The notes under the pieces: generated by a model
Told to the model about the DNA's origin: nothing
What the model saw: the letters and a program-made list of their open reading frames with translations, nothing else
Database searches by the model: none
DNA from: Takakia lepidozioides
Lineage: Eukaryota > Plantae > Bryophyta
Reading direction: 5' to 3'
NCBI GenBank assembly: GCA_030704615.1
Contig: CM060731.1
Span: forward strand, 75,268,001-75,332,000
DNA: 64,000 nucleotides
In this document: one piece after another, positions 7,600 to 49,009 of the stretch
Numbering within the stretch: the stretch's first letter is position 1
How the letters are laid out: each line of letters opens with the position of its first letter
Position numbers and translations under genes: made by a program

Positions 7600-10210
7600 G
7601 AGTTGTTATGGTAAATGGAACTTTGCTTTGCTCTTCCTCCTTCAAGTGCTTATAAGTCATCAGCTAGCGCAATGGAGGCTATCCATATCTTCATATCCTC
7701 TCACAGCAACTCAGTAAAAGACAAAGGGTTCCATGCACCTCTTTGCTTTTTCAGCCAGACTGTTGAAAACTCCCTTCGCATCCTTCATGCACCCACATTG
7801 GCAAACAGGTCAACCAGGGCAGTGACATCTGTACAATCCAGCTTTGACGATGTCACCATGGACCTCCTTCCCCTTTTCCAGAGCTTCTTTCATTGTCAGC
7901 TGCTAGCAGCAAGGCAAGGACCTATGCATGATTTGTTCTAGGAAACACCCAACTCAACTATTCACACTATTCTACAACAAAATGTATGCATCTGGTTGTC
8001 CACCTCAATACAGCAGTGAGACCTGGCTCCTTTCTGAGACCTCTGTCCCTCATCATTTTTTACACCTTCGCAGTATCGCCCCCCCTGCCAGCCTTGAAAG
8101 TAACACGTAAATAGCAGCATCCTGTGGATCCCATTTAGAAAGGCATTTTGCTGCACTTTCTGCCACCTCCACATTGCCATGAATTCTGCAAGCACCAAGC
8201 AAGGTCTGCCACACTGAAGCAGCTGGTTCGATTGGCATTTTGTTCATGAAGTCCTCTGCCACCTCCACTCAACCTGCGTGGCCAAAAAGGTCCACAATGC
8301 AGCCAAAATGCTCCATTGTAGGAGCGAGGCCATGATTTTGACTCACGGAATCAAACCATGCTGGGCATATCCTGCAATCATCGCATTCCACGACACCACA
8401 TTTCATTCAGCCATATTGTCAAATACTCCCTTTGCATCCTTCATGCACCCACATTTTGCATACATGTCCACCAGGGCAGTGTCCAGAATGACATTTGGTA
8501 CAATTCCAGCTTTGACGATGCAAGCATGGACCTCTTTGCCCTTTTCTAGAGCTGCCAGGCTTGCACACACACTGCAAACACACACAAACGTGATGTAGTC
8601 GAGCTTCGCCCCTTCGCACATCATTTGCTCATAGGTGTCCAAAGCCTCCATCCCGCGTCCGTCCTGTGCATACCCTGTGTTGGGCAGTGTTCAGAATGAC
8701 ATCTGGTACAATTCCAGATTTGACGATGTCACCATGGACCTCTGTCCACTTTTCCAGGGCTGCCAGGCTTGCACACACACTGCAAATGCAAACAAACGTG
8801 CCTTTAGTTGACCATCTACCAATGCAGGTTTCTTGTACTTATTTATCCACAAGGAATCATAGGTAATCTGGAGCTTGAAGTCCAGTCCCCTTGGATGAAT
8901 CTGGACCCACACTCTATCCCTGCTCCTTCAGCTATCCATGCCTCTGCACAAATCATGCATACATCCTTGTCTTGCTGCTAGCAGTTGACAATGACAACCT
9001 GCTCAACAAAGTTCTCTGGAATACAGCTATGCCCTTCGTAAGTAGGTTAAACTTATTAGCTTATCAAGGGAGCTACATGGGCATAGGACTATAAGATAAA
9101 ACCAAAACAGGGAGATGCTATGACAAAGACCACAAAAAGCACGGGAATAGACATACTCAAATTGGGCCGATTAAGACAATGTAAATAATGTCACAATGCC
9201 CAGATTGTCTTGATCAAGGGAGCAAGGCTTGCCGTATCCTTATGCGCCCTCACAAGAGCAAGTTGCAAAGACCCCAAGCTCTCTTTGCGGATACAAAAAA
9301 CTTGAACCAAATGTTGTTCTTGACAGGTGCAAGCATGAGGTGTTCATCTTGCATCTCAAGGCAGAATTGTCTATCTCGAAATTCTCAAGTTGTGGTGCTC
9401 AGGGAACTGACAGCGAGCAGTCGCCTGGATGTTGTTCCAAGCTCACGAGATTACTGTCTCCATTTTGAACCAACCTTTTGGTAACCCAAAGCTTGAGTAG
9501 CATATTTCAATCTGGAAGCTACAAAGACTTTTATGGAACTGCTACTGAATATTGTGGCTTCTCCTCATCTCTGTTACCTCCAACAGGCATTCACCTTTTT
9601 GCCTCGATTGTCCCACCATTGACGGGGGTCAGAAAAGTATTCATTCCATAGCTTCTCCTCGTCTCTGTTACCTATTTCTGGATACTTTCCTGTTGTCACA
9701 CTGGCAGTATCATGTCAAAGTCACTCCAAACTATCAAAGCTTCACTCAACCAGCTAACTTGCAGAGTTCTACATGAAAATTTAGGGCCGATTCTGATAAG
9801 AGGGGAAAACAGGGTGAAATGTGTTGAAGAAGGTGCCTGCATTAGCAGTGCCTCGTTCTATCAATTGTACCGCTGCCGCTGCTATTTCCAATTGACTGCG
9901 ATCGGAAAAGTGTTCACTCCAAAGTTTCTCCTCATCTCTACTATCTGTTTTTGGATATTTTCCTGCTGCCACATCGGCAGTAACTTGTCAAAGTCACTCC
10001 AAACCACCACAGATCCACCCAACGAGCTAACTTATAAAATTCAATATACATCTCAGGGCCGAGTCTGATGCAAGGGCACAACAGGCTGAAATAGGTCGAA
10101 GAAGAAGGTGCGCTTACCACATTGTCCATGACCTTGTGTCATCATCTAGCAAGATTTGGCCGACCATCACCCCAAAAAAACCTCTTGTGTGTGCTGCTTG
10201 TGTCTGTAGA
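7600..10210 (-). pseudogene. Rearranged PLS/E-class PPR plus OSB-type PDF-motif pseudogene fragments
   Basis: PPR motifs ALEKGKEVHACIVKAG..DTALVDMYAKCGCMKDAKGVFDNM (8403-8651). E domain MPIEPAASVWQTLLGACRIHGNVEVAESAA (8053-8268). PDF halves EEKLWNEYFSDPRQWWDNRGKKVN (~9590-9665) and HPRGLDFKLQITYDSLWINKYKKP (~8810-8900). Confidence 0.85.
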
Positions 10211-13059
10211 CGGGTAATGTCGGTTGGTCTGTGAGAACCACCAAGGTGCAGCTGAGTAGGTAGAGATTGAAAAAGGGCCTGCTAAGACCAAGCTGCGGAG
10301 AGGAGCCGATTGATTTGGAGGCAGAGTGGGAAGACCTGTACAACTATCGCAATCTGGCCGTGGAGATGGTGGTTAGGGGAGACGTGGCAGTCGCCCACCC
10401 AAAACAGTTTTTGTTTACTGTTGGAGATCCTGCCAGTCGCTGTTTTTTGTATTATAAACAGTTGGAAGATAGACTGGAGGCATTTCGACAATCTCATCTC
10501 CGGGATAGGCACTGGAATCGAGTACATGCTTGTGGTTTTCTCTCTGCTATTCCAAGGCTAGATGACAAACTGTTGTCGAGGTACCTAGATATGGTGCAAC
10601 CTCTGGTGATATTCTCATAAAGAAACTGCGCCACAACTTTGGCCGTATCGGTGCGAGAGACCATAGCTTCAGCCCACTTAGTGACATATTCAATTGCAAC
10701 AAGAATATATCGTTTCTGACCATTGCAAGAAGCAGAGGTGATAGGTCCAACAAAATCGATACCCCACTTCTCAAAAGGTGCCTGTGCAAGGATGGGAACC
10801 AGGGGCATAGAATTCGATCGCGCAGGTCGGCCAATACGTTGGCATGCATCACAATGACGCACATAAGCAAAAGCATCTTTAAATAGGGTAGGCCACCAAT
10901 AACCTGCCAATAATACCTTCCGTCCGGTGGCATCCCCTGCAAAATGACCACCACAAGAATCGGCATGACACCCCTCAAGTATCGTTGGAACCTCAGCTTC
11001 CAAGATGCAACGGCGCAATACACCATCATTCCCTAGCTTGTATAATGTGTCGCCAATAATTGTATAAGGCGCAGTCTTCTCTATCAGCCGACGCTTCTGC
11101 TTCTCAGTATAACCCTCTCGAAATTGTTGTAACGATAGGTAATTAAAAATAAGAGCATACTCTCCTGTCAGCACATCAACCACAAAAAAAGGCAGCATCT
11201 GGGAGAGAATCATCTATCGGTTCTTCGTCGACTTCCTTCGATAGACGACTTAAATGATCAGCATTGGCATGCTTGCGCCCAGGGCGAACCACAATTTTAA
11301 AAGTAAACTCTTGCAATAAAATAACCCACCGGGCCACTCTGCCACTCAGCTGAGGTTTATTAATGAGATATTTTAGTGCATCATGATCAACATGAAAAAC
11401 AAATGGATAACCCAATAAATAATGGCGATACTTCTGAACCGAATAAATCATGCCCAAACCTTCTCGTTCAGTGGTAGTATAATTTTCTCCGCCACAGCCA
11501 ATTGACGACTCGCAAAATATATCGGATGATCAAACGACTTTTCATCCTTCTCACTCAAAACGCTACCAATAGCATAGTTTGAAGCATCCACATAGACCTG
11601 AAACTCCTTAGTCCAATCGGGGGAAATCAAGATAGGCGCCTTTATCAACCGCCCTTTTAATTCTTGAAAAGAATGCTGACATTCCCTTGTCCACTGTTGC
11701 TCGGCATCATGTTTCAATAATTGTGTCAATGGTAGGGCAATCTTAGCATATCGACGGATAAAACGGCGATAGTACCCCACATGGCCCAGGAAGGCAGCAC
11801 CTCTGACACCGTCGTGGGGGTAGATAATTGGACAATAATCTCAATCTTAGTGGGGTCAGTCGATATCCCTCGAATTGATACAATATGGCCTAAAAGCTTC
11901 CCCTTGGTAACCAGAAATTGACATTTTCCGGCATTCAGAGAGATTCCATACTCCTTACAGTTTTGAAAGCACAGCTCCAACATCTCAGCATGTGTTGCTT
12001 TGCTGCTATAGACACAAAAATCATCCAAGAAGATCTACATAAATAGGCGCAAGTAATCCTGAAAAGCGGCAGTCGTTACTCGTTGAAACGTAGCAGGAGC
12101 ATTGCAAAGTCCGAAGGGCATGACTTTATAGGCATAAGTGCCCCAATCGGTCGTAAAAGTAGTCTTAGGCCAATCCTCTTCTGCGATCGTGATCTGATTA
12201 TAACCAGAAAAACCATCGAGGAAAGAATAACACTCATGGCCCGCTACTGCATCTAGAATAGTATCAGTGAAAGGTAATGGAAAATAATCCTTTCGAGTTA
12301 CAACATTAAGTTTCTGGAAATCCTGGGGGGTGCACTCCAGCCACGTGCGTGCACAGGAGGGGGTATTTTAAACCCCTCCATGTACAACATTATACATATA
12401 GATGGGGATTTATATCACCTTAAATATAATCTTACAGGAGGGGGTTATTGAATTTTAGGAGTAGTCTAGTGGTAAGGGTGTAGAATGTGTCGTGACGCAC
12501 GCGGGGATCAAATCGCGATGCACTGTTGTTTTGCTTTTTTTTTTTCTTTTCTCCCCGCGATCTGTCTCCCGCGGGCTCTCTTTTCCCTCCTCCCCCGCAC
12601 CCCTTCCGTGTCAGCTTGGTCTAGCAGGCCATGTTTCAATCTCTGCTCAATCTCGCCGTGCATGCCAGGGGGCAGTGCAGACAGGCCAGGGCAGTGTTCT
12701 TGAGAAGACCACCTTCATAGAACAAGGTAGCCTAACAAAATGAAGACGAGACACTCCCATGGATATTATGGAGTATATATCTTTATTTCCTTGGTTCGTG
12801 CTTTGGTTTCTAATGCACTACAACTCTTATGGCACGCCATCCATGCACTGAAGCTCGTTGCCTTCTTTCTTCTTTCTTCTTTGTGACCCCCTCTCTTTCT
12901 TGTTTCTTTTTTCCTCTTATCCCATAAGATCTTTGAGCTTCCTGCAGCCATTGTGAAGTACGATTTCATTTCATTGCTTTTCTTTCGTTCTGTTCCTCTG
13001 CGCCTCTCCACCTATCCTAAGCAGCTGATTGACTTTCAGAATTTTTCATCCCGCATGTG

Positions 13060-14000
13060 GAAACCGATATGCAGATGGTCAACTGGAAACAATAGCGGCA
13101 GCAACGCATTGATAGAACAAGGCACTGCTAATGAAGGTACCTTCTTCAACGCATTTCAGCCTGTTTTCCCTGTTAGTAGAGTCGTCCCTATTTTTTCATG
13201 TTGAATTCTGCAAGTTAGCTCGTTGGTGGATCTATGGTGGTTTTGGAGTGATTTTGTGCTCCATGTACCTTCTTCTTCAACCTATTTCAGTCTGTTTTGC
13301 CCTCTCATCATTAGGGTTTAGGGTGTTTGCTGGAAGAACTTCATGCCATCAGTGTCAGCTGCTAGTATCAAGGCTGAGGATGTATTCATGATTTGTCCAC
13401 AGGCAGGGATAGCTGAGGACCAGGGATAGAGGTCCAGATTCATCCAAGAGGGCCGGATTTCAAACACAAGTTTCTTTCTGCTTCCCTGTGGATCAATAGC
13501 TACAAGCAATCGCGCGAGGAGATGGTCAACTGGAAACATCAGCGGCAACAGTGCAATTGATAGAACAAGGCGATGCTAATGAAGGTACATTCTTCAACAC
13601 ATTTCAGCCTGTTTTTCCCTGTTATCATAGTTTTTCCTTGTTTTTGCCTGAAGGAGCAGGGATAGAGTGTGGGTCCAGATTCATCCACGAGGGTTGGACT
13701 TCAAGCTCCAGATTACCTTGATTCCATGTGGGTCAGTAGCTACAAGAAACCTACATGGGTAGATGGTAAACTAAAGGCAGCTATTGCAGCGGCACAGATG
13801 ATAAAATCAGGCACCTCAACCATGACCACAGCTTCTGAAAGAGGATCAAGAGAGGGAGTCCACAATGCCTCTTCTGACATTTCTGGGCATGTGAAGATAC
13901 TTTGTGCGGCAGACAGCCTGACAGAGGCTCTACAGATTCTAAACTAATGAGGCATTTTAGCAGATTCAGATATGTATGTCTGTCTCTTGCTTAAGTGCAT
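13060..14000 (+). pseudogene. PDF-motif/PPR-linker gene fragments (dispersed repeat family)
   Basis: HPRGPDFKHK at ~13441, SYKKPTWVDGKL, GHVKILCAADSLTEAL; homologous to 46200-47120. Confidence 0.8.
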
Positions 14001-14709
14001 CACTGTCACCAACCAGGGCAAAGGTGGGGCCACTCCTTGGATTAAAACGTATAAATATGTTGGCTTCCTTTAGCATGCAAAGGAGAGAAGGAAAAGACAT
14101 AAACAGTTCGGTTTTCCTTCAGACCTATGTTTGATCCAATCTCAGATGTGGGGAGGTTGATATTTTTTAGTGTGCAGTTTACCTTCCACTCTCAAACTTC
14201 TACAACTCAAAATTTGGCATTGGTAGTAATTCATCCCAATAGTGTCGAGTTCAATCTATTCGCAGCAGACTCAGCTGTAACTTTGGGAAATTTCATCAGC
14301 TAGGTTTGACAACCTACGGTGTTGAAGGGATTTGTAGAGGAACTCAGTGTATGGAGGGCTCACTCTGTTTTGGGTGATGGCGGCACGTTTTGCAGTTGGC
14401 TGGGCTTCACTGCTTGCTCACCGAAGACCATGGCGTGTCTCTCATATTGCAGCGGTACTGTTCATTCTCCTCGTCAGCTTGTGCAATCCTTATCTTTGGA
14501 GATGTACTTCAATGAAGGAAGGGCAGAGGGAGGATGGTTTCCAGTGGGCAGCTAGTTAGATTGTACTCATAAGACGTTGTTTGCCGTAGCCTTGTGGACC
14601 TTGACCCCGCGCCCAGTTTGAGCGGGAACAAAAGGGACAGAACCTACCTCTGTCAGGGGCTGACGTTGGTAGTAAGACTTACCTTCATATATAGAATTAA
14701 TCCGGGTTC

Positions 14710-15005
14710 CAATATCAGAGGTACCAATATCAGTTCTGTCGATCAACACATTGGCACACTAGGGGAACAAATTTTTGTCCATTATGATATAGTCCACAAT
14801 GGAACGTTCCCCAGTTTGGGATTTCTCACGAGTCCACTGCACTTGGTCACCTCTTGTCTTGTTATTCTAGGTCAAAAGCTGAAGCTCTTCCAGACAGTTA
14901 ATTAACCGTCTGCCATTAGAATTCAGCTCGTCCTCACCAGAAGACCCAATGATATCGTCCTGATGGAGCCCTTTGCCCACTTGGGCATTGAAGTCACCTT
15001 GCAAT
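14710..15005 (-). mobile_element. LINE ORF2 AP-endonuclease fragment
   Basis: Minus strand reads GDFNAQVG...ELNSNGRRLINCLEELQL and WTR...ERSIVDYII...DIGTSD, matching APE motifs GDFNA, S.IDY and SD(H). Confidence 0.8.
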
Positions 15006-15009
15006 AGCA

Positions 15010-15650
15010 CCACAGACATGAAGAGAAGCTTTGGAATGAGACACTTTTCTGACCCCAGTCAATGGTGGGACAATGTGGGTGGATGGTCAACTGGAAACAG
15101 CAGCGGCAACAACGCAATTGATAGAGCAAGGCATTGCTGATGAAGGTACCTTCTTCAACACATTTCAGCCTGAGGGCACCTTCTGGTTTGACCTGTTTCA
15201 GCCTGTTTTTCCTCTCATCCTCCTCAGCCCTGAAGCATATGTATTGAATTCTGTAAGTTAGCTCGTTGGGTGGATCTGCGGTGCTTTGGAGTGACTTTGC
15301 AAGTTACTGCCGAGGGTGGCAGCATGACAGTACCTAAAAAAAGATAATAGAGATGGAGAGAAGCTTTCAAGGAATGAATACTTCTCTGACCCTAGTCAGT
15401 GGTGGGACAATATGAGTAGATGGTCAACTGGAAATAGCAGCGGCAGCAGCGCAATTGATAGAACAAGGGACTGCTAATGAAGGTACCTTCTTCAACACAT
15501 TTCAGCCTGTTTTTCCTTGTTATCAGAGTCGTCCCTAAATTTCCAGATGGCCGGATTCCAAGCTCCAGATTACCTATGATTCCATGTGGAAGGATAGCTA
15601 CAAGAAACCTGCATGGGTAGATGGTCAACTGGAAGCCATTGTAGCACCTG
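15010..15650 (+). pseudogene. PDF-motif gene fragments (same repeat family)
   Basis: Repeated EKLWN.YFSDPSQWWD, WVDGQLETAAA..QLIEQG and GTFFNTFQPVF segments. Confidence 0.75.
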
Positions 15651-18600
15651 CAAAGGCATGATGTACGCATTGTTAGTGTGGAGGAGGGGTAGCTGTTGAT
15701 GCAGGGAGAGGATCGTGGGTGCAAAATCATCCAAGAGGGCCAGATTTGGAGCAAGGAACAGCGCTGGCAGGAGTTCTATAAATATGATCCACAACGGTGG
15801 GACAATATTGTCAACAGGGTGAGTTTTCTTCATGCAACATCGTAGGGAGTTTGACAGAACTTTGTATTTAAATATGTTAGTGTGGAGGGAGGGCTAGCCG
15901 CTGATGCAAGGATGGACTGTGGGTTCAGGACCACCCAAGAGGGCTACCAGCAGTGGAAGTAGCAGCATTTGGTCAATAGCAGCAGCAAGAATTAGCAACG
16001 TCAAACTCATCAATCAGGTACTTGCTTCTGTATACATTTCATCCTCTTTTCAACGTAGTCCCTGCTTGGACAGCCTATAGGGTTGTATAAAACAGGACTT
16101 TGGAACCTTCCAACCCGGGTGCTTTGTTATTGGTCTATCGAGGTCTGATTTGAAATGTTTTCATTGCATTTTGCAGGTGAACTCATCATGGAAGAAGAGT
16201 TGGAAGTAAAAGTCCTGCTCGTTGGAGGAGATGCATCACCAAACAGGCTTGGTTCTGTGTTCACTATGCAAGGTGTCACATACAAATGCATCTGAGCAGA
16301 AATTCTAGGTGATGAGCTTGTCTCAGCAAAATTTCATTTCCTTTCCATGGGGGGTAGTGTCCTTTCAGCCAAGCAGGAAGAGAGGATGGTTCTGAAAGAG
16401 GATACTGTACACATTAAGATTTCAGACCAAAATGATGGGGACCAAGGATTGAAAAGACCTCTATCTTCCAGTGGTTCTACGATCTTGCGTGGGGACAGAC
16501 CAGGCGAGGACCCGACACCAGGTCTACCAAGATGAGGGATAGACCCTGATACACCCTTTGCTGGCGATGGTGGAAATGAAGACCATGCACATGAGCATGC
16601 ACTTCAGCAGAGATCAAGTAGATTGTGCAGCAAGTTGGCTACATCCAACGATATTCAAAAATGGCAGAAAGAGATTAGAGCCGTTGAAAGGAAAATCTCT
16701 GCAGAAGGACGATGTGACAAGTTTGAGCTGATGACAAAGGATCAACAAGGACAAGCAATGTTCCACATATGGTGTGTTGAGTGTGAGGATGTTTATGCAC
16801 GGTCTGGGAAAAACAAACCATATGATGCATGTGTGCAACTTTATGAGATCTCATTTGAGGAGTGAGGGGCATCGCATAGCCTATGAGAGGCGTCATGGGA
16901 AGGGATCATCACAATGTGTTATCAGCCCTGTAAATGCAGATGAAGCATTAGATGCAAATTGGGTTCGGATTGTGCTGTATTTTTTTTGTTGATGAGGAGA
17001 CTGCGATCCAAACTACAAACAGGAAAGGTAGACCAGGGAAAACCTGCAGAGGAGCAACCAAAGGCACTTGGTATTTGGGCAGGGTTCAAAGAATGCGGAA
17101 GAAAATCAATAAGCGGTTTGTAGAATGTAGGGATTCTGTTGATTTATTGGAGCGTCCTTCTCATATGGAGATTGGGTGAGCAAGGTACCAAAAAATTCGA
17201 GGAGGGGTCTATACGTACGATTTGACGGATAACATGATGGTTGATTTGGATTCCATTATCGCGTTAGCATGTTTAAAGTACAATGTCAAGTCAAACACAT
17301 ATGTTCTTGATGCAAATGATCGAAAAGTCTTTGACAACTTTATCAAAGGCAAATATTTTTTTTAATTAATTTGTTAGATTTTATTATGTTTTAAATGAAT
17401 AAATTTGATATAATATAAAAACATACATATACATATTGGAGGGTTATTTTTAATGATGGAAAATGAGAATATACATACAGAAGGGGGTACTTTCTAAAAA
17501 TTGTAAATTTTTGTATATTTACAGGAGGGGATTTTATAATCTTCAAAAGTATGTACAGAGGGGTATAAATTATCCAAGGACCCGTATACAGGGGGTTTTT
17601 TATTAGGTGACGAACGCACGTGATACGCACAGTTTATAAAGAGTGCACCCCCCGGGCCGGAAATCTTGACAGATTCGTACTTTGCGATTGTTTCATGGGC
17701 ACGACCACTATAGGCAATACCCAATCGCTATAAGGTACAGGATAAATGAATCCAACAGCTAACAATTTGTCCAACTCTTCTTAACCATCAGAGAATATTT
17801 AGGATTCAATCGATGTGGCGTTGTCGTACTGGCATTGCTCCTTCCTCCAATATAATGCGATGCTGACAAATTTATGGGGGCACACCCCGAAGATCAGTAT
17901 AGGTCCATGCAAAAGCCGTACGATGTTTATGGAAAAACTCCTTCCACATAGACAATTCATTGATGGGATTGCCGCAATCATCATTTGATGGGATTGCCGC
18001 AGAAATTATAATGTCATTGGGCTCAGCAGCTGTATTCAAATTCAAGGTTTGATAAGGGTCCTTCTTTATTAATGGAGCACGGTTATCATCAGCCGAATCA
18101 TACCACGCGATATCTTCCGACGTGGTGGCCTCTTCCCACTCAGATTCATGCTGCACCATATAAGAAGATCGGGCTCCCTCCCATCGCAAGATAGCATCAT
18201 CAGAGTCACTATCAAAATCACCATGCCAGGGGTACTCTCCTAGATTAGCACAACGGTAGATCCGCCGGCTCCGTGTATGTTTTAGGTGACAATGGTAGAA
18301 CTTGAAGATCACTATCCGTATCACTGGTCCTCTCGTCAGCTTCAGAGATAAACTCAGATTCGATCTCTTATGTCTCCCTATGATATGCTACTAGGTACAT
18401 TTGCAACACCACCTTTTGTTCTCTTTTTCCCAGAGTCAGAGTGTCTTTCCCCCAATCATTTTTAGCTTTAGATTGGAACAACCATGGTCGTCCTAATAAG
18501 ATGGGGTAAGAATAGGCCGAGACATTTAGTCGGAAGACAACATAATCAATGGAATACTCAATAGCAGCAATTATAGTTGGCACGGCAGTCAGGACGCCCA

Positions 18601-20396
18601 TTGGTTTGACACGGCTTTGATCAGCCATCCGTAACACCAATCGAGTGTTCTGTAAACCACTGAGTCCTAGCTCCTCCATTGTGTTGGAACTCATTAAATT
18701 GACACTAGAACCACCGTCAATTTGAACTCCAGTAATAACAACGTCATCTATTGTCACATCAAGGACGGGGGCACCTGGATCCGGATTGAGTGTGGATATA
18801 CTCACTTCATGAAAGTCGTTTTTCATTGCCTATTTCCGTACTAGAGATGACTGCAACAGTTGCCGCAAAGAAATAGCAGGTTGCAACATGTCCAGGTCTT
18901 TAAGTATATCATAATGAACCAAGCCCTTAGTCAGTGCCATGACCCTTCTCCGCCGAGACCCCTTGGGGTGTCATATCTTGCCATTGCCCATTTTCGGACC
19001 AGTATACTTCCCTCTATTTCTCCGCTGGACTGGCTCCGTTCTAGATTGGGGTATCGCAACTGAGATGACAGGATCCGGGTCGATAGAGTCCACGATAGTG
19101 CAAGGTGGATGGACAACCAAACTAGGCGATATCATCGTTGGTATCGGATGAATATCGGGCATAATGGGCAAAGATCGTTGTACCTCCTCCATTGGCTTGG
19201 AATTCATGCTATCGGGGGTTTTTAAGGCAGAGTTTTCCACGATAGGGTCCATCGGCAATAACTTACGAGCCCTGGTGGTAACCGCTTTAACCATGGGATT
19301 ATCTGTCTCAGCATTAAAATAATAAGATTGGAAAGGGGTATCGGCTGCTTCCATCTTGCCTTTGCCTTTTAAGGTGGCTATCTTATCAGCCAAATTCATA
19401 TCACTCACACATTCTTGCACTGTTACTCGGTTCACAACTCGATTGGTATTAGTATTTCTAAAAGAATGTGACGGCCTTGCAGTTGGTGGTACTGGTCCTG
19501 AACCAGGAAATGTAGGGATTGATGAGGTTTGCTGATGGATGGGATTTTGGGGGTATGGACTCTCACATTGTTCAACAGTATGTCCCTGACCTCCACAACG
19601 CCCACAAAGCGGGATATAATCAACCGGGGCTTTCGGATTAGGGCATTCGCTGGCAATATGTCCCATCTCATGACAACGATAGCAAATCGGATATTGGCCA
19701 TTCCTCAATCGTCGAGCCGGTGGCCGATAAGGAGCATTGGTCTGTTGTGGATACATTTGCTGCTGTTGGCCTCCTCCGCCCCCATAGGTTTGATTGGAGA
19801 ACAGCCGCAATTGGTACTGCCGCCATTGGTACTAGTACAATAGGTGGTACAATAGGTGGTGCAGGGGCTGCAATAGGGGACGCAATAGGTGGTGCCGATG
19901 CAGCTGCCTGTGCGGCTAATAATGCTCGTCGTGCTATCCTGACTGCCAATCGATCAGATCTGGCTTTAGCCTTATGTTCGGCGGTTACGGGAGATTCCCT
20001 CATACCCCATAACCCCTTCTTCTTAATTGACAATACAAGATGATCTCCTCGATTTCTTGCAACAGTCAATTCAAGTGTTCTTAACGTTTCCTCTTGTTCA
20101 GGCAATAGTTGAATCTGCTCCTCCTGCGCTATCGCAAGAGCTAGCATCTCCATTTTTTGTTAACTGAGAACAAGGAGGCTCATCCGTCTCCCACGCCTTC
20201 TTCTGAGTCCAAAAACATTATGAAATCTCTGTCTTTTTATGTTGCTTACATAAACTACAATAAGGACATAGTTTGAAACCAGGTGGGGAAACCTTACTAT
20301 TACGAATGACTTCCCCCGTCATCTCGTAATTCCTCAACAGAAAGTAATTATCTTGAAATTTTAGTAAAGCATCACTATAGCAAACCGCATCGTCTT

Positions 20397-20414
20397 TCCC
20401 CGGCAGCGGCGCCA
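20397..20414 (-). other. Primer-binding site complementary to the tRNA-Asp 3' end
   Basis: Minus strand TGGCGCCGCTGCCGGGGA, one mismatch to the plant tRNA-Asp complement TGGCGCCGTTGCCGGGGA. It lies a few nt after the ...TTCTACA LTR end at 20421. Confidence 0.85.
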
Positions 20415-20559
20415 AAAAGATGTAGAATAAAACTAAGATCAATCCTAAAAGAAAAGATCAATTAGTCTAGAGTTCGTTCGCTGGGGAAAGCACTATACGA
20501 CTAATGCATAACGATGCTAGACTATTCTATCTCTCTCTATCCCTTCTTTGAAACAACTT

Positions 20560-20862
20560 TTACCAACAGTCATCTTCATCTAACACGATCATCATTCTCC
20601 CAGATTCATAAATATTCTCTCCATCTTCTATTAACTCTGCTCCATCGGCTGAAATCAAATACCATTGCTCTATTATGTTTTTCCTCCAATAATCTCTCTG
20701 ATACAAAGCCAACAGCTCTCGATACCATTCTTTACTGACTAACCATAGATTGATTATCTCTTTGTCGCTACATTGTAGTATTTTAAAGATATCTAGAGAC
20801 AAACTATTAGGCAGTCCAGTAATTAGTTCTACAGGATATGCTAGTTGTTCTCTTTCACACAT
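20560..20862 (-). CDS. Small F-box-like protein (100 aa) in presumed LTR
   Basis: ATG-started ORF with ITGLPNSLSLDIFKILQCSDKEIINLWLVSKEWYREL, fitting the F-box pattern LP....IF..L.......L.LVSK.W; paralog of the adjacent ORF. Confidence 0.55.
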   Translation of the reverse strand: MCEREQLAYPVELITGLPNSLSLDIFKILQCSDKEIINLWLVSKEWYRELLALYQRDYWRKNIIEQWYLISADGAELIEDGENIYESGRMMIVLDEDDCW

Positions 20863-20871
20863 CGCTAGTGA

Positions 20872-21186
20872 TCATTCTTCACCACCAATTCTGTTTCTCC
20901 AGTCGCTCCAGGGATTTCCCTCACCAAAATTATGATTCCATTCTCTCATAAGTTCAGGATAGCCTTTAAATGGTCTATACCACTTCTGCAACCAACTATG
21001 TTTCCAATAACAACTCCGGTATAGAATGGATATCTCCCTATACCATCCTTTATTGACCAATTGCAATAAGAATACTTCTTTATCACTACAACAAAACTTC
21101 TGAAAGATTGTTATCGATAAATGGTCTGGTAATTTAGTGATCAACCCTAACACTTCCTTTATTCCCTCACCATTGCTCTCTGTCAT
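20872..21186 (-). CDS. Small F-box-like protein (104 aa) in presumed LTR
   Basis: ATG-started ORF with ITKLPDHLSITIFQKFCCSDKEVFLLQLVNKGWYREI; diverged tandem paralog of 20560-20862. Confidence 0.55.
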   Translation of the reverse strand: MTESNGEGIKEVLGLITKLPDHLSITIFQKFCCSDKEVFLLQLVNKGWYREISILYRSCYWKHSWLQKWYRPFKGYPELMREWNHNFGEGNPWSDWRNRIGGEE

Positions 21187-21850
21187 GCAAATGATTTTAC
21201 TTCACAATTGTACTCATACCCTGAATCCAATTGAAGACTATTTCTATCTTTGTCTCCTTAATCTACTCCTTCTTGAGCTTTGAATATCTCCCTATCGATA
21301 TTTCTCTTGATAGACCAGAAACTAATTCTCACATCGAATTCTTATCTGTTTCATTTATGCGCATTCTCACCATCTTATATAATTATGGTTCTTCACTTCT
21401 TATACACAAAATCACATTCTCATTCCATCACTCCATTCTTCACACATACACAAAGTGAATTGCACTTCCTTTTTCTTCTTCCTCTCATTCATAAATCACA
21501 ACATTGCAAGAACGTAGTACTAAATCTACCATTGTAGAATAACTCTATAGTCTATCTTCTACTCACTCTACTCTCCCTACTCTCGGTCACGGCTCTCTGG
21601 CTCAATTGACACTTTCTGCTTCTCAAGAACGCATTATATAGCAGGGCGCTTCAATAACTGTAATAACCGCTCAAACTCCTTCATCCATCCTTTACAATTA
21701 TTCATCCATTTCTTCTATCATTCAGTCCAAGATAGACTATCGACTGTATACAAGATATCGAAGAACACTGCCCTATCGCAGCAATATCGAAGGTATCGCA
21801 GGCTATATCGATGAGAAAGATATTAAAAAATTCTGAAAATTGTCATTAAG

Positions 21851-22303
21851 TCAGGAATTCCTATTATTCCATCTGCTTCTCTCTGTAGTCCCTTTTTGTC
21901 TCCGTTGGCAGAGACTCATAGCAATATAGGCCGCGTTTTGGGCTCCATGGTGTATCCGGAGAACCTCAAAGTTCCTTTGTGTCGCATGGTTAGCCTTCCA
22001 GTTGTAAGGCAAGCATTGCCAGGGGACATCAATCGACTGAAGCACAACTTCAGAGAGGGGTACAAACGGGGGTCGGCAGCATTCTACGTTTCCATTGAGA
22101 ATGACCAGGGTGATACAAGGGGCCCCACTGCAGAGGAGCTTCAGAATTGGAGCCCCCACTGGCACACTGTAAATGCCGAGTTTGAAGCCTCTCTGAAGAC
22201 TAATCCCACATTCGCACACATGGCAGGGAAGATGTTCTTCGTTTGGGACGGGAACCACAGGATGCTTGCCTGGACAGAGTACATTGCTGAAATGCATTTG
22301 ACC
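21851..22303 (+). pseudogene. ParB/sulfiredoxin-like domain ORF fragment
   Basis: Stop-free frame containing VRQALPGDINRLKHNFREGY and FFVWDGNHRMLAW, the DGxHR signature of the ParB/Srx fold. Truncated at a junction with the PDF-family repeat. Confidence 0.55.
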
Positions 22304-22306
22304 TGA

Positions 22307-22630
22307 CTACACACATAAGCAGCACACACAAGAGGTCATTTTGGGTTGATGGTCGGTCATATCCTCCATGGATCATGACACAACGTCAAGGACAATGTGG
22401 TGAGGGCACCTTCTTCTTCGACCTATCTCAGCCTGTTTTGCCCTCTCATCAGACTCGGTCTTGAGATGCATATTGAATTCTGTAAGTTAGCTCGTTGGGT
22501 GGATCTGTGGTGGTTTGGAGTGACTTTGACAAGTTACTAATGTGGCAGCAAGAAAGTATCCAAAAACAGATAACAGAGATGAGGAGAAGCTTTGGAATGA
22601 ACACTTTTCCGACCCCAGTCAATGGTGGGA
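22307..22630 (+). pseudogene. 5' fragment of the PDF/PPR gene family
   Basis: Homologous to the reverse complement of ~9895-10210; encodes NRDEEKLWNEHFSDPSQWW. Confidence 0.8.
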
Positions 22631-23644
22631 AGCTGCTATGTTCATGTCTCGTGCGCTCATGAGCATACCCGCCACCAGTTTCTTACTTCTATCACCTCTC
22701 TCACCTCCCTCACCCCTCTCACCAGCCTGTCTATTGTCCTGGAGGTTTTACTCCTCCGCAAGCTCCAGCAGGTTCTGATCTCTTGGGAAGTCGTCAAGTC
22801 GCACTACATTGTCGTCCTCTGCTTCTGTCAGCTAAATGAGCCGCCCTTCTGCATATCCGAGGTCTGACATCTCCAGCAGCCTCCACCGCATCCGTGTTTT
22901 CTGAAACTGCCTGCAAACCCAATATCTCTGCTTCCAGTCTCCCAAGTGGTTTTACTGGCTAAGCCATGGGCTCATTTTGCTTCATCAGCTTCCGGACTCT
23001 AGGTGGGCTTTTCTGAGGCGATTTCTGAGGTGTTCTATGAGGAGTCGCCTGCCTCGATGCACTTCCACCTTGCGAGCGCAGCACCCGGGCAGGAGTATCC
23101 AAAGTTGTTTGTGTTGGCTCGCCCCCCTGCGATCCCTCCCCAGCTCCCATGTCAAACAAACAGGAAAACATGACACACTGCACGCAAAAAAAAAGGTGTA
23201 AAAGGAATAGTGCGTACGGAGTGTTTTACATCCGCGAAGCACGAATCTCTCACTGGTGGGCGATCCGAGTCTCCGGATAACGAGGTCTGCATTTCCTGCA
23301 TGAGACGGAGCTTAAATCGTTCCCAAAATCCCGCGTCATCCTTCTCTGCGCCGGAGTCGCCTGACCTTCCACAAACTCTATGCTATCACTATGTTATATA
23401 AGGAGAGGAAACGCAGGAGAACGTCACTGCACAAGGGCAAGGAGCGAGAGAGCGAAGCGGTGGAACATGCAACCACTGTGCACGAGCAGATGCGTAAGCA
23501 GCCACGTCTCCCGAAGCGTTGCCACCGTCCACCACTTTCTGCCGTATGGGTGATGAAGAGATTGTGACCCCTGACACGTTCGCACGGATGAAATCGACTG
23601 GAACACGACGCGTGCCTGTTCAAGCCACCAATAGAAGACGCTTT

Positions 23645-25135
23645 ATCCGAATTGCGGCACCGAAATACCGTTCCGTTCACCGGATGCTGTTCCCGGAGCA
23701 GCCGACATTGAATGAACTATCCGCACATCATGAAACCCAACCGCCATGAAATTCCCCTGCCTACCGACATTCAACAGTCAGGTCGGTACATTTCATCAGC
23801 GGACGGATGAATTTCGGCGTCGAAATTCATCCTATGCAAGTGCTTTCATACACAAACATATGAATTTCGGTGCCGCAATTCATCGCTTCCCCAGTCCTCA
23901 TCCATCATGAGCAAACCTGTCAGTCGGATATCGGAGCTCGAATTAATTCCGGGACAGTGAAGAACGCTGCGCTTAGGCACATTTCATCCATATTTCGGCG
24001 CCGAAATTCATTAAGAATATCTCCGTCCGCGCGTAGACAAGGTGAAATCATCCATATTTCGGCGCCGAAATACATCCAGCGCGAAGACTAAATCGGCACC
24101 ATGCTATGCTTTGCCGCCATCATTGCCCCTCACGGTTGCTGTCCATGCCTGTTGGACTTGCCATGTCTGGACTGTTTAGTATAATTTCGGCGCCGAAATT
24201 ATACTTTATGTGCGGCAACGTCCTGTACGAAAAATGACCACTTAATGGATACTGTCAGTTTCAAATGAAAACAACGGCTAAAATGCAATTAATTTTCCCC
24301 CAACATGAAAAAATAATCCCCTTTCGTCATTGGATAACGGCCTTTTGAAAGACATAAGGGGTTGAATGTGCCGATTTCTCCATTTAATGCAGAATATTCG
24401 TGTTATCTTTGTTTGAATGGGTTATTTGCAACGAATTTCGGAACCTTACATCATCCAGAAGCAAGAAGTAAGTGTCGGGTTCGGACAAATTTCGGCGCCG
24501 AAATTCATCCGTCGCATAGAAAATGTAATATTGGAGTTACCTTTGTGGACAGTAAAGATGAATTTCGGCGCCGAAATTCATCCATTTCAAAGAAAAATAA
24601 ATATTGGAGGGAGGGCATTGGATTAATTTCGGCGCCGAAATCCAGCGCTCAAACCCTTAAAAGAAATTGGAGGGATGACTTCGGATGAATTTCGGCGCCG
24701 AAATTCAGCTGACGCAAGGAAAAAAAATGGAAAGAGGACTTCGGATGAATTTCGGCGCCGAAATTCATCCAACGTCGTCCCTCCATTATTTTTTTTCCCA
24801 TGTGAACGATGAATTTCGGCGCCGAAATTCATCCCTACTGTCGATTCAGGATTACTCTCATTCGGATGTCGGCACCGAAATCCGGACACGTGGTGAATCA
24901 TGACTCTAATCACGAACACATTCATCCGTATTTCGGCTCCGAAATTCATCCCTTATGTGCAGAAATAATTTCATGAAGAATATGTTCATCCGAATTTCGG
25001 CACTGAAATCCATCCGTCGGGTGCTTGCTCAGTTTCATGAGGTGAACAAATTTCGATTTCTGTCGCCGGAATTCATACCGTGGCTTCCAAATCTGTTACA
25101 TGACAGACATGTTCATCCAGATTTCGGTGCCGAAA
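23645..25135. repeat. Array of ~19 palindromic motifs, consensus GATGAATTTCGGCGCCGAAATTCATC, at ~60-70 bp period
   Basis: Best copies at ~23806, 23990, 24053, 24182, 24487, 24557, 24621, 24683, 24743 and 24808; degenerate copies continue to ~25130. Confidence 0.92.
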
Positions 25136-25685: not shown

Positions 25686-28608
25686 CTACAAGATGGTGCA
25701 TTGAGAATTCCTTTTCAACTCCGTGTCAATTTTCTTCTTAAACTCCTCTCTCTCCTTCTTCGCCTTGGCAAGCTCCTCCCGTAGCCTCTGAATATCTGTA
25801 TCAGCCTGATCCTTGGCCTGTCGAGCACGTTCCTCGGCTGCCTCACGGGCATTCTTCTCAGCATTCAACTTCTCCTCTAACTTTTCTGCACTCAACCGCA
25901 ACTTCTCCTCCACCTACACGCAAGAACAACACTATATCAATTTCAGCTGTCTATATCATTAATCTACTTTCTGGCAAGAACAAAGCCTGTGTGTACTCGG
26001 TATGGTGATCAGCACACAATCCAGAAATAGTGCCCGAAGCGTGACCATTGGTACATACCATGCATGGTATACCACTACCCACCAACAAAATTTCAATTCT
26101 TTGTTGATCTGAGTTCTATGTGGAGACTAGCCCAGGAAATGTGCTTAATATGTAGGCCCTCAGGAAGACCAGAAGCATGCTGAACCAAAAAGATAGACAT
26201 GCATTATTCAACTGCAAAGGCCTCGACAGGATTGGAATAATAAAGAAGATTACCCTCGCCACGAATTGATTCAGCTGCTTCTCATACGCCTCAGCCAGCT
26301 CTTGCTTTATTTCTTTCAGTTCTTGGAAGTGATATCCACTTGCGCTACTACTACGCTGGTCTTGCTCTGATCTTTTTGCCAGGTCCTACAACAGCCGTAG
26401 AGTGTACAACGCCTCAATAGTAAGCCTTTATGGAAAGCATGAGATACTTGGTGATTGCAGTCATAATATCCATTGCCAAGTAACAAGGAGACCCTCTAAA
26501 TCTAACGAAAGAAACCTCCCAGATGTAGACATAAAGTCCAAAGGTTGGTTGCAAGGCAACAGGTTTTTTGAAGGAACAGCAGCAGGAAGTAGAAAAAATT
26601 AGACCTTGAGAAAGGAAAATGATACTGGCAAGCATAATACCTGTACACAGAAGCTCATGGCCGAAACAATGTACACTATTCAAATTGGCTGACAATATCC
26701 ATATGTTGCTGCATAACTGCTCTCCCACTGCCAACAGTGGAAGCAAGAGACGATCAGAGGGCGAAATGAAAACCTGGGCTTCCTGGAGGAGCTCATTGGA
26801 ATAGGGGCTGCCACCGTTGGCCAAAAGCATGTCATCAATGACGTTAAGCAAATTCCCAAGTTGTTTCTCTCTGGTGGATTTGTCTTTGGCCTTGTTATCA
26901 AATACCACCTTTCGGTTTCCGCATCGCTGTAAAAACTCCTGCATCTCCAAATAGTCATAGGATAAGATCTACCAATAGAGTATATGGTCAACATGTAAGC
27001 AAAGTTCAGATGGGAAGCGGAAATAATTGGAAATTCCATACAAAGTGAAGGACTGCCGGAGAGATGTATCAATTCTTTTGTCTTTAAAATCTCCTCTTGA
27101 GTACTCCTTGAATTCTAACCCAGTTGTACAGTATATGCGAGTGCAAACTTTGCTGTAGGGCTCATGCAGAGCTCATAACAATCTGGTTAGAGGGAACTGA
27201 ATAATATTTGATGGTTGTGCTGCCATTGACTTCATACTAAAAATATTAGGTTTACTCCAGCACTGCTGCAGTAGCCTTCTAGCAGGAAAGAGACATGAAA
27301 ATGCAGCTGCAGTTGCACTTCCTGTCACACAAAACCGAGAGAATGTATTCCTGCCGTCCCCTGCAAACGTTGGCTTGCCATAGCCTTACGGCTGCTAACC
27401 CTGCGGGAAACTAACCCTTCCGCCTTTTGTGGGGTTTGCACCTATCAGGGTTTAGCTTATTGCCACAGCTCAGCTGCAGGTCTTAACTTGCTTTCCTGCA
27501 ACTGTCATTAAGGCACTCACAGGCACTTGTGCAAGCAAACTCAACAGCCCCATTGCAGGGTTATTGATTTTAGATTTTAAAGCCTTACACAGAAATGACA
27601 TGCCTGGGGAGGTTGGGAGGCTTCTGCCCGTCACTCTGGGTTGTGTGAAGGGCAAAAAAAACATGGAGAGGGAGAGAGAGAGAGGGAGAGAGAGAGAGTC
27701 TCTTACACGTAGAAACTCAGGACAATCTTCTCCAAGGTATTCTTCTATGGTTTGCTCATTTTCCTCCAGTTCATCGCCCCCAGTAAATACGACCACCATG
27801 TAATTAACCACTTTCTCCCCAAATATAATCTGCAAGCTCTCAACAGCAGCAATTTCTTCTGCAGTGAATCGATTTCTCACAGACAGAACCAACAGCAGCG
27901 CATGAACACCGTCCTTTGCAAGATCCAAGCAATTCATGATCTCCTTGCCTATATACTCATGTGACATCGAAGGGTCAAACAATCCTGTTCAAAATTCACA
28001 TAAAGGAACATATTAGGACGCCAGATCTTCACACAAATTCAGACTGTATAGCTTCGCATCATGTGCCCCGCCATACTAAGAGAGAGGAGGAAATTACGAA
28101 CCCCCAAGCAGCAGAATCAGGGCCAGGGTCCAGAGCGGCACAAGTCTATCAACGCCCTCATAAAACATTCCATCATATGATCGAAATCATGACTCTGAGT
28201 AGGGGAAGACGATCACAACTTTCCGGGTGTAAGACGTACAAAACATTAGTGTGAAAAATCAAAACTAGGAACAGATAACGCAAATGGACCCCGGAGATTG
28301 GTGAGATTGAACATTGTCATAAAATTTCTGAACAAGGAGAGAATTTGGGCACTGTACAGGTTTTCAGGGAGGGTGACATTACCCGGGGTATCAATAACTC
28401 GAAGGCAGCGGCCATCGGGGCGGATGATGGATCGAAGCTCGCATGTGCTGGTGACGGCGGAGGAGCTTGACCTCGAATTGAATTTCCGTGACCCCAATAT
28501 GGAATTCCCTGTTGAACTCTTCCCATTCCCAGTGCGCCCCACCAGCACAAGCGTGGTGGGAACGGTGCTCGCCGCCATCTCCCAGTCTTCATAGTCTGAC
28601 CCCCCCAT
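25686..28608 (-). CDS. AIG1-type / immune-associated nucleotide-binding (IAN, GIMAP-like) GTPase, ~342 aa; exons 28608-28383, 27984-27707, 26938-26774, 26385-26254, 25913-25686
   Basis: G1 LVGRTGNGKSSTGNSILG, G3 VIDTPGLFD, G4 VFTGGDEL, CGNRKVVFDNK, C-terminal coiled coil and CaaX CTIL. All introns are GT-AG and in phase. Confidence 0.95.
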
Positions 28609-29928: not shown

Positions 29929-32900
29929 ATGGAGGAAGGCCCACGGGAGGTGGTGTGTAGCTCCGAGTCCCTGCAAGCACGTCGACCCAACTGTGGTCGA
30001 CGCTCGACCCGGATATCTCGGATGATATCGACAAGCGTTATGGTAGTGATTGCTGTGTGCATGGTTATGGTGATGCCTGCTGTGCATGCAGGTGCGAATG
30101 AGTTTTTCAAGAGTAGTGTGTCTGGCACTGCCAATGTGGATCCTTCTCAAAGCAGATTTTTGAATGAGGATAAAGTCTATGGAGAGTCCAAGTCGATAAA
30201 AGCGTTGAAGCAGCCGTTTCGGACTGGCTTTCACTTCCAGCCTCGCAAGAATTGGATGAACGGTAAGCTTGACTGCAGATACGAGTGGAGAGAGAATATG
30301 ATCAATGCTTTTACAATATTAGCTGATGAAGAGATGCAATTGTTTGAGAGGCTATCGGCCCAAAATCCATACTTTCACAGAACCATAAGTCCTCGAATGC
30401 CTTATGTCTTTGCATCTTCTCGCCTGCTTCTGTCACTTCCATTGCTCCTGCTCACCATTTACGCAATCAGGGTCTTTATGTATTTCTCTCTCTTTCTCTC
30501 TCTCCCTGGGGATTCTCATTCTAACAGAGCACGTGGGTGATGATGGGTGGGCGGGCGATGAACCTGCGACGTACTTCAACATGCAGACCCAAATGGTCAG
30601 TCTCTCTACCATAACTATATGTTTTATTCAACTTCCATTCGCTTCCTGGGAAATTAGTTTCAAAGTTCTGAAGAGAGGGGGCACAAGTGTCAAAACCTCA
30701 CACTTAATGTGTGGCTATTTGCTGCTTGGTCCTTTTCTGAATTGAGAGAGAGAGAGATATTTTCAGTTACAGCTCAATGTAATCACGGAGGCAATGTCCA
30801 CTGTGATTGTCTATCAAATGCAAATAACTTCACTTCCTTAGCTGCATGATGAGAGGTGAAGACAGATCACTTTCATTCTTTCTCTGGCCAGATGTGAGGG
30901 TAAGGTTCCATATTTGTGGTGAAGGAATACTATCCAAAAAAGCTTAGTTTAAGGCCGACAAAGTTTCACAAATGAGAGAACATGTACCAATATCTCTTAA
31001 CAACATTGAAAGTTGACTTCTTTGCAGGCCCAATGTTTTACAAGGGATACTATCACCTCTTTTATCAATACAACCCATATGCAGCAGTGTGGGGCAATAT
31101 AGTCTGGGGTCACGTGGTCTCAAAGGACCTCCTTCACTGGCGTTATCTGAAGCAGGCCCTGAAGGGCGACCAGTGGTACGACATAAAGGGTGTCTGGTCA
31201 GGCTCAGCCACATTTTTGAAAGATGGGTCGCCAGTGTTGCTGTATACAGGCTGGACAAATGCCTCTGCACAAGTCCAGAACATGGCTGTTCCAGCTAACA
31301 AATCTGACCCACTACTGAGACATTGGGTTAAGGTTAGTCTTTGATCCATATCATCCAACACCCATTTGGGGACAGCTCTCTCTCTCTGGGCCTCTTGCGT
31401 GCGTGTATACATTTATTTCTTATTTGTGTTGTGTCATTCTCTCTCTTGTGTGCTAGTATTCTTTCCTGTGACACTATATCACCAAGGGCCAGTTTTGGTG
31501 GTCTTCATAGAGTAACAAACATCAGTTATACCTCCTCTGGCCTCTAAGTCTCAGTTGCTTTTTTGAGACCAGTTAGAATAAACCCGTGGTAATCTGAGAC
31601 CAAAATTTGCTTTATAAAAAATAGAAAAACCAGATGGAGTCTCACTTCAGCTGGTCTCAAATAGTGCTCATAATTCCGTATTTACGTTGCCTCCCCATCA
31701 AACTCTATTAAGTTTGCAGGCTCTGTCCTCTGTACACATCAAGTACAAAACAAGAATAGTTGAAGCAACTTTGAGATCTAGTTTCAGATTTAAACAGCCT
31801 GTCAGGTGTGCATTCTCCCTGTATGAATTGTTTATGCCTGCGATGGGGCTCCAGGTGCTCTCACATGTGAAGGTCAAAGCTTGCATACCTGAATCACAAC
31901 TTGAATCTTGATAAAGTTGACACAATCATGATTCTAGAATGGTTTGATGGATGATATCTTGTATTGAATTATTTGAGCACATCTTAAGTTGCGAAGTCCT
32001 TCTGTGTTTGCTCAGGTTCCGGAGAATCCAATTGCAGTAGCACCCTCTGGATACAACAGCAGCGAATTTCGGGACCCCACAACGGCCTGGCAAGGTCCAG
32101 ATGGGGTATGGAAGATTCTGGTAGGTGCAAACAGGGGTGTTGGTGGGAGCATTGGAACTGCTCTAGTGTACAAGAGTAAGGATTTTCGCACATGGGATTT
32201 GGAGCATCCCTTGCACTCAGTGGCTGGCACTGGAATGTGGGAGTGCCCAGATTTTTATCCAGTGCCAGTTTCCGGGACGCTGGGCTTGGAATCCTCCGTC
32301 CATGGGCCTTCAGTGAAACATGTGCTGAAAATTAGCTCTGATAACAAGAAGCACGACTATTACTCTGTGGGAACATACAATGTAGAAACAGACACATACG
32401 AGCCGGAAAGTCCGAAACTGGACACTGCAATTGGGCTACGTTATGACTATGGAAAGTACTATGCCTCCAAAACATTCTTTGATCAGCACATGAAGCGGCG
32501 CATTCTGTTGGGGTGGGTTAATGAATCGGACAGTGTGCAAGACGACATCAAGAAGGACTGGTCATCTGTCCAGGTACGTGGTAATCTAACCATGATTGAA
32601 GACACAATAGGTCGATTCTGCTTTTCTATTACATAAAATGTAACCATGTTTTGGAAGTTTTGACCTTCTAGGCTTTGGAAACTTTGAAAATAGAGGGAAT
32701 CATGCTTGCTATTCTGACCCAATTCAAGAAAAGAGCTTCTTGAGCCATTATGCTTTGTCAACTCCCATGTCAACTCTCAGTGGGTTGGACGGGATATATA
32801 TTCTTTCTAGCACTGGACCATATTTGAAAATCCCAATCCTAATGTTCTCAGGTATTGAATCGCTTATGGGTGGCAGGCAATACCCAGGAAAGTATGGCTC

Positions 32901-48200: not shown

Positions 48201-48960
48201 TTTTACAAGTTTTCTAGTGACGACATCCCCATAGTGAGAGGATCTGCCCTATCAGCAACATGGGTAGATGGTCACTGGATGCCGCAGCAGAGCGGCTTAA
48301 CTGATAAAATCAGGCACTGGTAATCAAGGCACCTTCTCCAACACATTTCACCCTGTTTTTCCCTCTTATCAGAATTGGCCCTAAATTTCCATGTTGAATT
48401 CTGCAAGTTAGCTGGTCGAGTGAATGTAGTTTGGAGTGACTTTGACATGATACTACCACTGTGACAACAGTAAAATATCCAAAAACACGTAACAGAATGA
48501 GAGAACTGTGGAATGATACTTTTCTGACCCCAGTCAATGGTGGGACACCGAGGCAAAAAGTGAATGCCTGTTAGATTACAGGAGAATAGCAACGCCATTC
48601 AGTATAGAACTAGTGTAATAGCTGAGTTGGGTGTTTCCTAGACTAAATCTAGGCTGTCATTATCAGCTGCAAGGCAGGATGTATGCATGATTTGCGCAGA
48701 GGCATGGATAGCTGAAGGAGCAGGATAGAGTGTGTGTCCAGATTCATCTAAGAGGCCAGATTTCAAAGCTCAATGATTACCTATGATTCCCTGTGGATCA
48801 ATATCTACCAGAAACCTACATGGGTAGATTGTCAACTAAAGGCACAGCTTGCAGCGGCAACAGTTGTATAAACCAGGCACCTCAACCATGACCCACACCT
48901 TCTCAAGAGGAATCAAGAGAGGGAGTCCAAATGCCTCTTCTGGCATTTCTGGGCATTTGA
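45280..48960 (+). pseudogene. Cluster of PDF-motif + PLS-PPR gene fragments
   Basis: PPR EKGKEVHGDIV..NSTLMDMYAKCG..RDVVSWSTMIAGYAQQGRGMEAL (45804-46030). PDF HPRGPNFKHKITYDSLWINSYKKPAWVDGRL (~46250-46340) and EEKLWNEYFSEPSQWWD (~46565-46616). Linker runs into ADSDMYICLLLKC..GKQVHTHII..NTLVNMYVKC (47077-47286). A further copy lies at 48265-48960. Confidence 0.85.
45515..45685 (-). mobile_element. Short Gypsy integrase fragment
   Basis: ECDECQR...PTEPFQKWGLDFVGPINPPAKNTQNMYIITA. Confidence 0.85.
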
Positions 48961-49009
48961 AGAGCATTTCAAGCAGTCATGTAACGTATGTTTGTCTCTT
49001 GTTTAAGTG

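Follow-up and report, generated by a model that had tools for sequence, protein, structure and literature searches.

In the available passages of PMC9412291, the sag/naf ORF of MMTV is located in the LTR's U3 region, has an LTR-internal promoter and likely acts on the host. Small viral proteins with an F-box-like motif were also reported, including P0 of the poleroviruses and enamoviruses and CLINK of the nanoviruses, which bind SKP1 and contain no LRR or WD40 repeats (PMC3588083, in part). The plant LTR retrotransposons carry extra ORFs that are family-wide orphans; these are common in the Athila/Tat elements and are suspected of accessory or anti-silencing roles (excerpts of PMC7264820, PMC6317226 and PMC11728184). 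According to the excerpts of PMC7264820 and PMC11728184, such ORFs occupy the internal region, for the most part the stretch between pol and the 3' LTR, and mostly have no known function. The large survey described in the available part of PMC6317226 counted only ORFs of at least 250 codons, and therefore 100-codon genes within an LTR would be missed; no F-box is mentioned in the available passages or in five of the seven supplements of that paper. The telomeric non-LTR retrotransposons of Drosophila captured host-like fragments (140-235 bp) of the F-box gene CG12520, which are discussed as sources of small RNA in the available part of PMC13534243. A literature search with thin coverage of subscription journals retrieved no report of an LTR retrotransposon that encodes F-box proteins.

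The window analysed here is a stretch of 64,000 nucleotides from Takakia lepidozioides, and all coordinates are positions in it. It contains two tandem F-box-like ORFs within the LTR of a Ty3/gypsy element, and the features are listed below.

20421 to 21871, minus strand: 5' LTR of an Athila-like Ty3/gypsy element, about 1,451 bp, delimited by contig depth and by a loose end at the 5' border
21634 to 21641, minus strand: TATA-like box, candidate LTR promoter, from the sequence
20872 to 21186, minus strand: ORF1, an F-box-like mini-gene of 104 aa, F-box at residues ~16-58 (PF12937 E 0.0048, below the cut-off; ESM Atlas 0.95)
20560 to 20862, minus strand: ORF2, an F-box-like mini-gene of 100 aa, F-box at residues ~15-48 (PF12937 E 7.3e-4, below the cut-off; ESM Atlas 0.94; SKP1 co-fold)
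20397 to 20414, minus strand: primer-binding site (PBS) of 18 nt, tRNA-Asp type by motif match
18971 to 20153, minus strand: broken gag with zinc knuckles, from domain search and sequence reading
18368 to 18826, minus strand: aspartic protease remnant (weak Asp_protease_2 match, E 0.02)
17656 to 17950, minus strand: 5' part of the reverse transcriptase (RT), broken, from frame translations read by eye
12326 to 17655, no strand assigned: later TIR insertion that splits the RT, from its ends and a target duplication of ~10 bp
10600 to 12325, minus strand: 3' part of the RT, RNase H and integrase, broken, from domain search and by eye
26400 to 28608, minus strand: host gene for an AIG1-family GTPase
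~29930 to 31350, plus strand: host gene, GH32 invertase-like
8403 to 8651: PPR fragments

Like the MMTV sag gene, as the excerpts present it, these accessory genes lie wholly within an LTR that has a candidate promoter of its own, and they would act on the host. The host element is here a plant retrotransposon, however, and the genes are two tandem paralogs of ~100 aa with an F-box domain, located downstream of the single TATA box that the copies share. The likeness to P0 and CLINK, so far as the cited part describes them, is that of a small parasite-encoded F-box-like protein without LRR or WD40 repeats, for which SKP1 binding is predicted here. Compared with CLINK the ORFs are about half the size, the F-box is N-terminal, and no sequence relationship was found; homology to P0 was likewise not detected in Pfam, in 1.84 billion proteins or in viral contigs. 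In contrast to the plant extra ORFs of the available literature, the ~100-codon pair is located inside the LTR and not in the internal region. The Drosophila case, from its available passages, is similar in that sequence derived from an F-box gene occurs in a retrotransposon in a setting of host conflict. The ORFs found here, in contrast, are complete and have diverged deeply under selection on the protein.

The two ORFs lie in the LTR and have been under purifying selection, and the reading that we favour, at a little short of an even chance, is that they are mini F-box SCF adaptors owned by the element, which recruit host proteins that limit it. Docking on the host SKP1 would be the task of the N-terminal ~50 residues, and the tails of ~45 residues, which have diverged, would deliver host proteins for ubiquitination in the manner of SCF adaptors; each tail would probably recruit a host protein that restrains the element. 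The tails are short for a substrate-binding domain. That the substrate is a silencing factor is a guess drawn only from the analogy with P0, and a rather doubtful one. The fullest version, in which an LTR-encoded pair of minimal F-box effectors hijacks the SCF to destroy silencing or restriction factors, and every LTR, including solo LTRs, would be a self-contained counter-defence cassette, equivalent in a transposon to the P0 of poleroviruses and laid out like MMTV sag, appears unlikely.

Docking of the ORFs on SKP1 is predicted from a co-fold. Residues 8-80 of ORF2 were co-folded with a plant SKP1 (locus L003), a stand-in from another plant, together with three controls. The pair scored 0.63, compared with 0.04 for the best control; the runs share at least 84% of the contacts, and the partner pLDDT is at least 61. 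Of the microbial pairs, 51 of 78 solved ones attained this co-fold mark, as did 2 of 108 mismatched ones; for eukaryotes the figures are 71 of 105 solved and 2 of 126 unrelated pairs. SKP1 and the F-box are a textbook solved pair, and therefore the co-fold indicates likeness rather than binding. Over residues 13-88, 16 of the 25 residues at the predicted interface are identical between the paralogs, compared with 15 of 51 elsewhere (p 0.006), whereas the enrichment within residues 13-50 alone is not significant (p 0.32).

The concentration of conservation on the predicted SKP1 face might also suggest F-box-only decoys, which would bind SKP1 without a substrate and benefit the element by dampening the host SCF or by being stabilised themselves. 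After the F-box, ORF2 has a conserved aromatic stretch and then an acidic tail; the conserved post-F-box stretch aligns with the helix after the Cdc4 F-box and may be structural, and only three identities lie in residues 69-88, both of which agree with decoys. Two diverged copies have been kept, however, which would be easier to understand with two substrates. Decoys are thus improbable, although not strongly so, and the adaptor reading is preferred because two copies are kept, the SKP1 face is conserved and the tails are divergent.

A contig from the sequencing runs X1 and X2 has an ORF1-like front fused in exact register to an ORF2-like back (joint 20695-21038, net 318 nt). It is either a single-gene LTR variant or a product of unequal crossover, and the letters at its junction depart from ORF1 chiefly at silent positions (by eye). 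The contig indicates that single-gene versions exist, which fits adaptors or decoys. A decayed third paralog, proposed at ~21380-21530, was rejected for want of profile support.

Both ORFs are real coding sequences that diverged under purifying selection, which is old and acted at the level of the family. Their identity is 41% over 76 aa (E 7e-19), and the motifs LP, IF, CSDKE, LV.K.WYRE and YW, which the earlier note listed as retained in the diverged paralogs, were all found in both. Over residues 13-88 the identity by codon position is 0.53/0.64/0.38 and the pN/pS is 0.40 (CI 0.29-0.56; pN 0.38, and pS 0.94 with silent sites saturated); the ratio is 0.31 over residues 13-59. Among the 31 residues identical between the paralogs, 17 are encoded by different codons. 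In neutral simulations to the same nucleotide identity, none of 3000 pairs stayed stop-free, and the mean protein identity was 21%, compared with the 41% observed. Two ORFs of at least 100 codons occurred in 3 of 2000 order-2 Markov resamples of the LTR.

The copy in the window is itself a dead insertion, which decays neutrally like its own pol. It was first argued that the ORFs remain open while pol is broken; as a sign of selection this fails, since the pol lesions (~4 per 1730 nt, by eye) predict ~1.45 lesions in the ORFs, and 1 was found. A comparison between copies gave no clear silent skew either: the 15 best-supported ORF differences between the window copy and the others (14 from 40 of 361 rows, and 1 from a separate comparison) comprise 6 synonymous and 9 replacement changes (p 0.05-0.26 against neutrality). 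The two intact ATG-started paralogs, 9 bp apart, are present in the window as first described; however, a one-base indel at 20914 in ORF1 separates this copy from most copies (7 contigs; in X1, 1616 of a summed depth of 2115), so that the last ~14 codons of ORF1 and the 9-bp spacing probably belong to this copy alone.

The neutral decay of the window copy would also be expected if the ORFs were captured fragments of host F-box genes, selected before the capture and now idle in the LTR. LTR elements are known to carry out transduction (PMC7264820, in part), and the capture of F-box gene fragments by the Drosophila telomeric elements (PMC13534243, in part) is a further precedent. However, the ORFs are equal-sized, intron-less from ATG to stop and a few bases apart, unlike tandem host genes, and no host-like parent was found in the protein searches. 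In base composition they match the element (GC 0.36-0.38 and GC3 0.32-0.38, like the LTR and pol), whereas most host exons have a GC3 of 0.43-0.66. Moreover, the seven distinct family indel events in the LTR all fall outside the ORFs (p 0.02, among 12 of 41 rows; the window-specific 20914, the sole indel row inside an ORF among these, was excluded), and in two pieces of diverged copies, of 24 and 30 letters, most differences from ORF1 fall at silent sites (by eye). An idle origin of this kind is therefore quite unlikely.

The ORFs are best called F-box-like and probably work like F-box proteins. The F-box families were the sole Pfam matches for both ORFs, at 15-20 bits, which is under the curated cut-offs (PF00646/PF12937: 17.6 and 15.2 against 20.5; 19.7 and 17.1 against 24.3). 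The best PDB sequence matches were the F-boxes of Cdc4 (E 0.019, reaching into the next helix) and Skp2; the core LP...IF..L...V.K.W is kept in both paralogs and aligns to these with a 2-residue insertion. In the ESM Atlas an F-box cluster ranked top for both (0.94 for ORF2, and 0.95 for ORF1 in a search of named clusters only), with shared-feature counts of 113 and 125, compared with the 170 typical of same-family matches. An HMMER profile scan of 1.84 billion proteins gave three matches, namely two generic F-box proteins through their F-box domains and one repetitive artefact (P0001), and no true homologue. No candidate for either ORF was found by word-indexed protein searches of near lengths, no related locus by searching the ORF profile against metagenome and viral contigs, and nothing meaningful in NCBIfam. 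The ~45-aa tails matched no recognised domain, and the proteins are thus without a C-terminal substrate-binding domain. The wording 'F-box-like' follows from this and from the failed formal Pfam threshold. An LxCxD word had also been considered for Rb binding; this was dropped, since the word lies within the F-box core; nor does it clearly match LxCxE.

The AlphaFold2 monomer models of both ORFs instead show a three-stranded beta meander (pLDDT 48 and 61), and the same three strands were obtained in two independent runs. Together with the sub-threshold Pfam matches, this might indicate that the ORFs are real accessory proteins of another kind, small beta meanders in which the LP/IF/W pattern mimics the F-box profile. 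However, the models are of low confidence and rest on 1-2 sequences, and nothing at E <= 0.001 was retrieved from the PDB and BFVD in a fold search with the ORF1 model. In 6 of 8 segments the hydrophobic moment at the helix period exceeds that at the strand period, and the co-fold likewise favours helices. The beta models are therefore weighed lightly; four sequence-based sources favour the F-box, and the SKP1 co-fold passes, which leaves a beta-meander identity decidedly unlikely. The F-box-like character proposed in the earlier note is thus supported by the same sources and the co-fold, but is qualified by the Pfam cut-offs and the monomer models.

Both ORFs are located inside the ~1,451-bp LTR of a multicopy Ty3/gypsy family, as the earlier note had claimed from the position of the PBS. 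Public contigs from 6 of 10 sequencing runs were compared with the region; X1, X2 and X4 are from one sample, and X5 is from a second study with thin cover. The summed contig depth, a rough measure and not a copy number, is higher over 20382-21879 than over the interior (17814-20381) by 2.9-fold in X1, X2 and X4 and by 6.4-fold in X5. The ratios of the ORF bins to the interior are 2.67, 2.35 and 2.52 (X1, X2 and X4, one sample) and 5.6 (the thin second study), and all LTR bins lie above all interior bins in 3 of 4 runs. The depth is at single-copy level by 21874-21903, i.e. beyond ~21873. A rough reading gives a family of tens of copies.

At the 5' border, six contigs have a loose end at 21869 and continue into mutually different sequence (agreement 0.58), and the first letters of these loose ends complete a 10-bp inverted repeat with the LTR 3' end. 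The termini are of the TG...CA type with a short inverted repeat; the 5' terminus is read from the loose ends of the six contigs (by eye), and the 3' terminus from the window, whose own first LTR bases are slightly eroded compared with other copies. The 3' end is the ...CTACA at 20421; it is followed by the PBS, which begins 6 nt further (20414-20397), and by gag downstream, in the order first noted. On this side the step in depth begins within the PBS, a sequence common to related families, and the 17 of 190 rows examined contained no loose end at the 3' border. A short LTR with the ORFs in unrelated flanking DNA or another repeat, which the single LTR in the window and the sharing of the last ~80 nt plus the PBS with other families of different upstream sequence (X6/X7 pieces) might suggest, is highly improbable, since the depth is evenly elevated from the PBS across both ORFs to ~21870, where the inverted repeat pairs with the CTACA end and the flanks outside vary.

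The PBS is of a type that we take to be tRNA-Asp from the known motif, and this motif has a single match in the whole window. The coding order of the element (gag zinc knuckle, protease, RT, RNase H, integrase) is that of Ty3/gypsy. No capsid domain was detected by Pfam in the gag region, which was also noted as 18971-20330 (-) with a short CxxC-containing frame after the PBS. The insertion that splits the RT seems to be MULE-like, judging from the ~10-bp target duplication; this 5.3-kb TIR element itself contains fragments of other repeats. Self-BLAST found no second LTR in the window, the element being truncated inside the integrase so that the 3' LTR is absent. Rfam found nothing within the LTR. 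By eye, no additional RNase H (aRH) is located between protease and RT or between RNase H and integrase, and the region after the integrase is missing. A PBS for tRNA-Asp is dominant in Athila (72%) and also occurs in TatII (37%), according to the available supplement of PMC6317226. The Asp PBS and the absence of a visible extra RNase H fit Athila, and the element is called Athila-like on this sequence evidence.

Among the 120 integrase relatives listed, 14 are from Adiantum nelumboides (41-56% identity), and the closest of those listed share 57-72%. By these relatives and the neighbouring PPR, AIG1 and GH32 genes, the host would be placed among the land plants, probably the ferns or other plants without seeds. 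Two further relatives (L121 and L122; 59-61% identity) occur on 2-kb contigs of a cyanobacterial MAG, which are too short to reach an LTR and are probably plant DNA in the bin. An integrase search of viral contigs found no related loci.

The TATA-like box, placed at ~21640 by the earlier note, was located at 21641-21634; a second TATA-like box at 21381 was rejected, since it differs in all other copies compared. From its position ~230 nt into the LTR, the box would drive a transcript across both ORFs. There are 14 short upstream ATGs between the predicted start and ORF1, and therefore translation would need splicing or reinitiation; the candidate splice signals are GTGAGT at 21566, which resembles a donor, and CAG at 21221. 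An intron between the two would take out 13 of the 14 ATGs, and the one left (21217) is altered in most copies. The ORFs might be located in U5 or in a long R, or alternatively in a U3 cassette with its own promoter, and solo LTRs could express them as well. Two runs guessed to be RNA gave three contigs, which cover 20322-20500 with none over the ORFs and are no evidence either way. One of these contigs runs on for ~340 nt into a different LTR sequence, which hints, weakly at most, that related families have long R/U5 regions.

The surroundings of the element are rich in other repeats. The segment 21906-22306 (+), together with 22632-24000, is part of a repeat that is far more abundant (~50,000 in summed depth in X1); in the other copies 21906 adjoins 22632, with the two on opposite strands, and the segment is therefore inverted here. 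Its ORF (21947-22306) contains DGNHR, presumably a ParB/Srx-like motif, and has no Pfam or NCBIfam match. A very abundant dispersed repeat of shuffled modules is located at 22301-22630, 8800-10215, 13070-15740 and 46030-48970, with a summed depth of up to ~900,000 (X1). In addition, ~10 short palindromic repeats of families D3, D6 and D13 lie at 23630-25050 with ~60-70-bp spacing.

In the available part of PMC7264820, the function of the extra ORFs in plant LTR retrotransposons is an open question, mostly for want of a recognisable domain. The recognisable domain found here offers a direct test, first of SKP1 binding and then of substrate capture. If the reading is real, retrotransposons would share the ubiquitin-ligase mimicry of viruses, and genes could hide in LTRs that are annotated as non-coding. 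Moreover, knowing the substrate would point to a host factor that holds retrotransposons in check, in a plant lineage that has been little studied.
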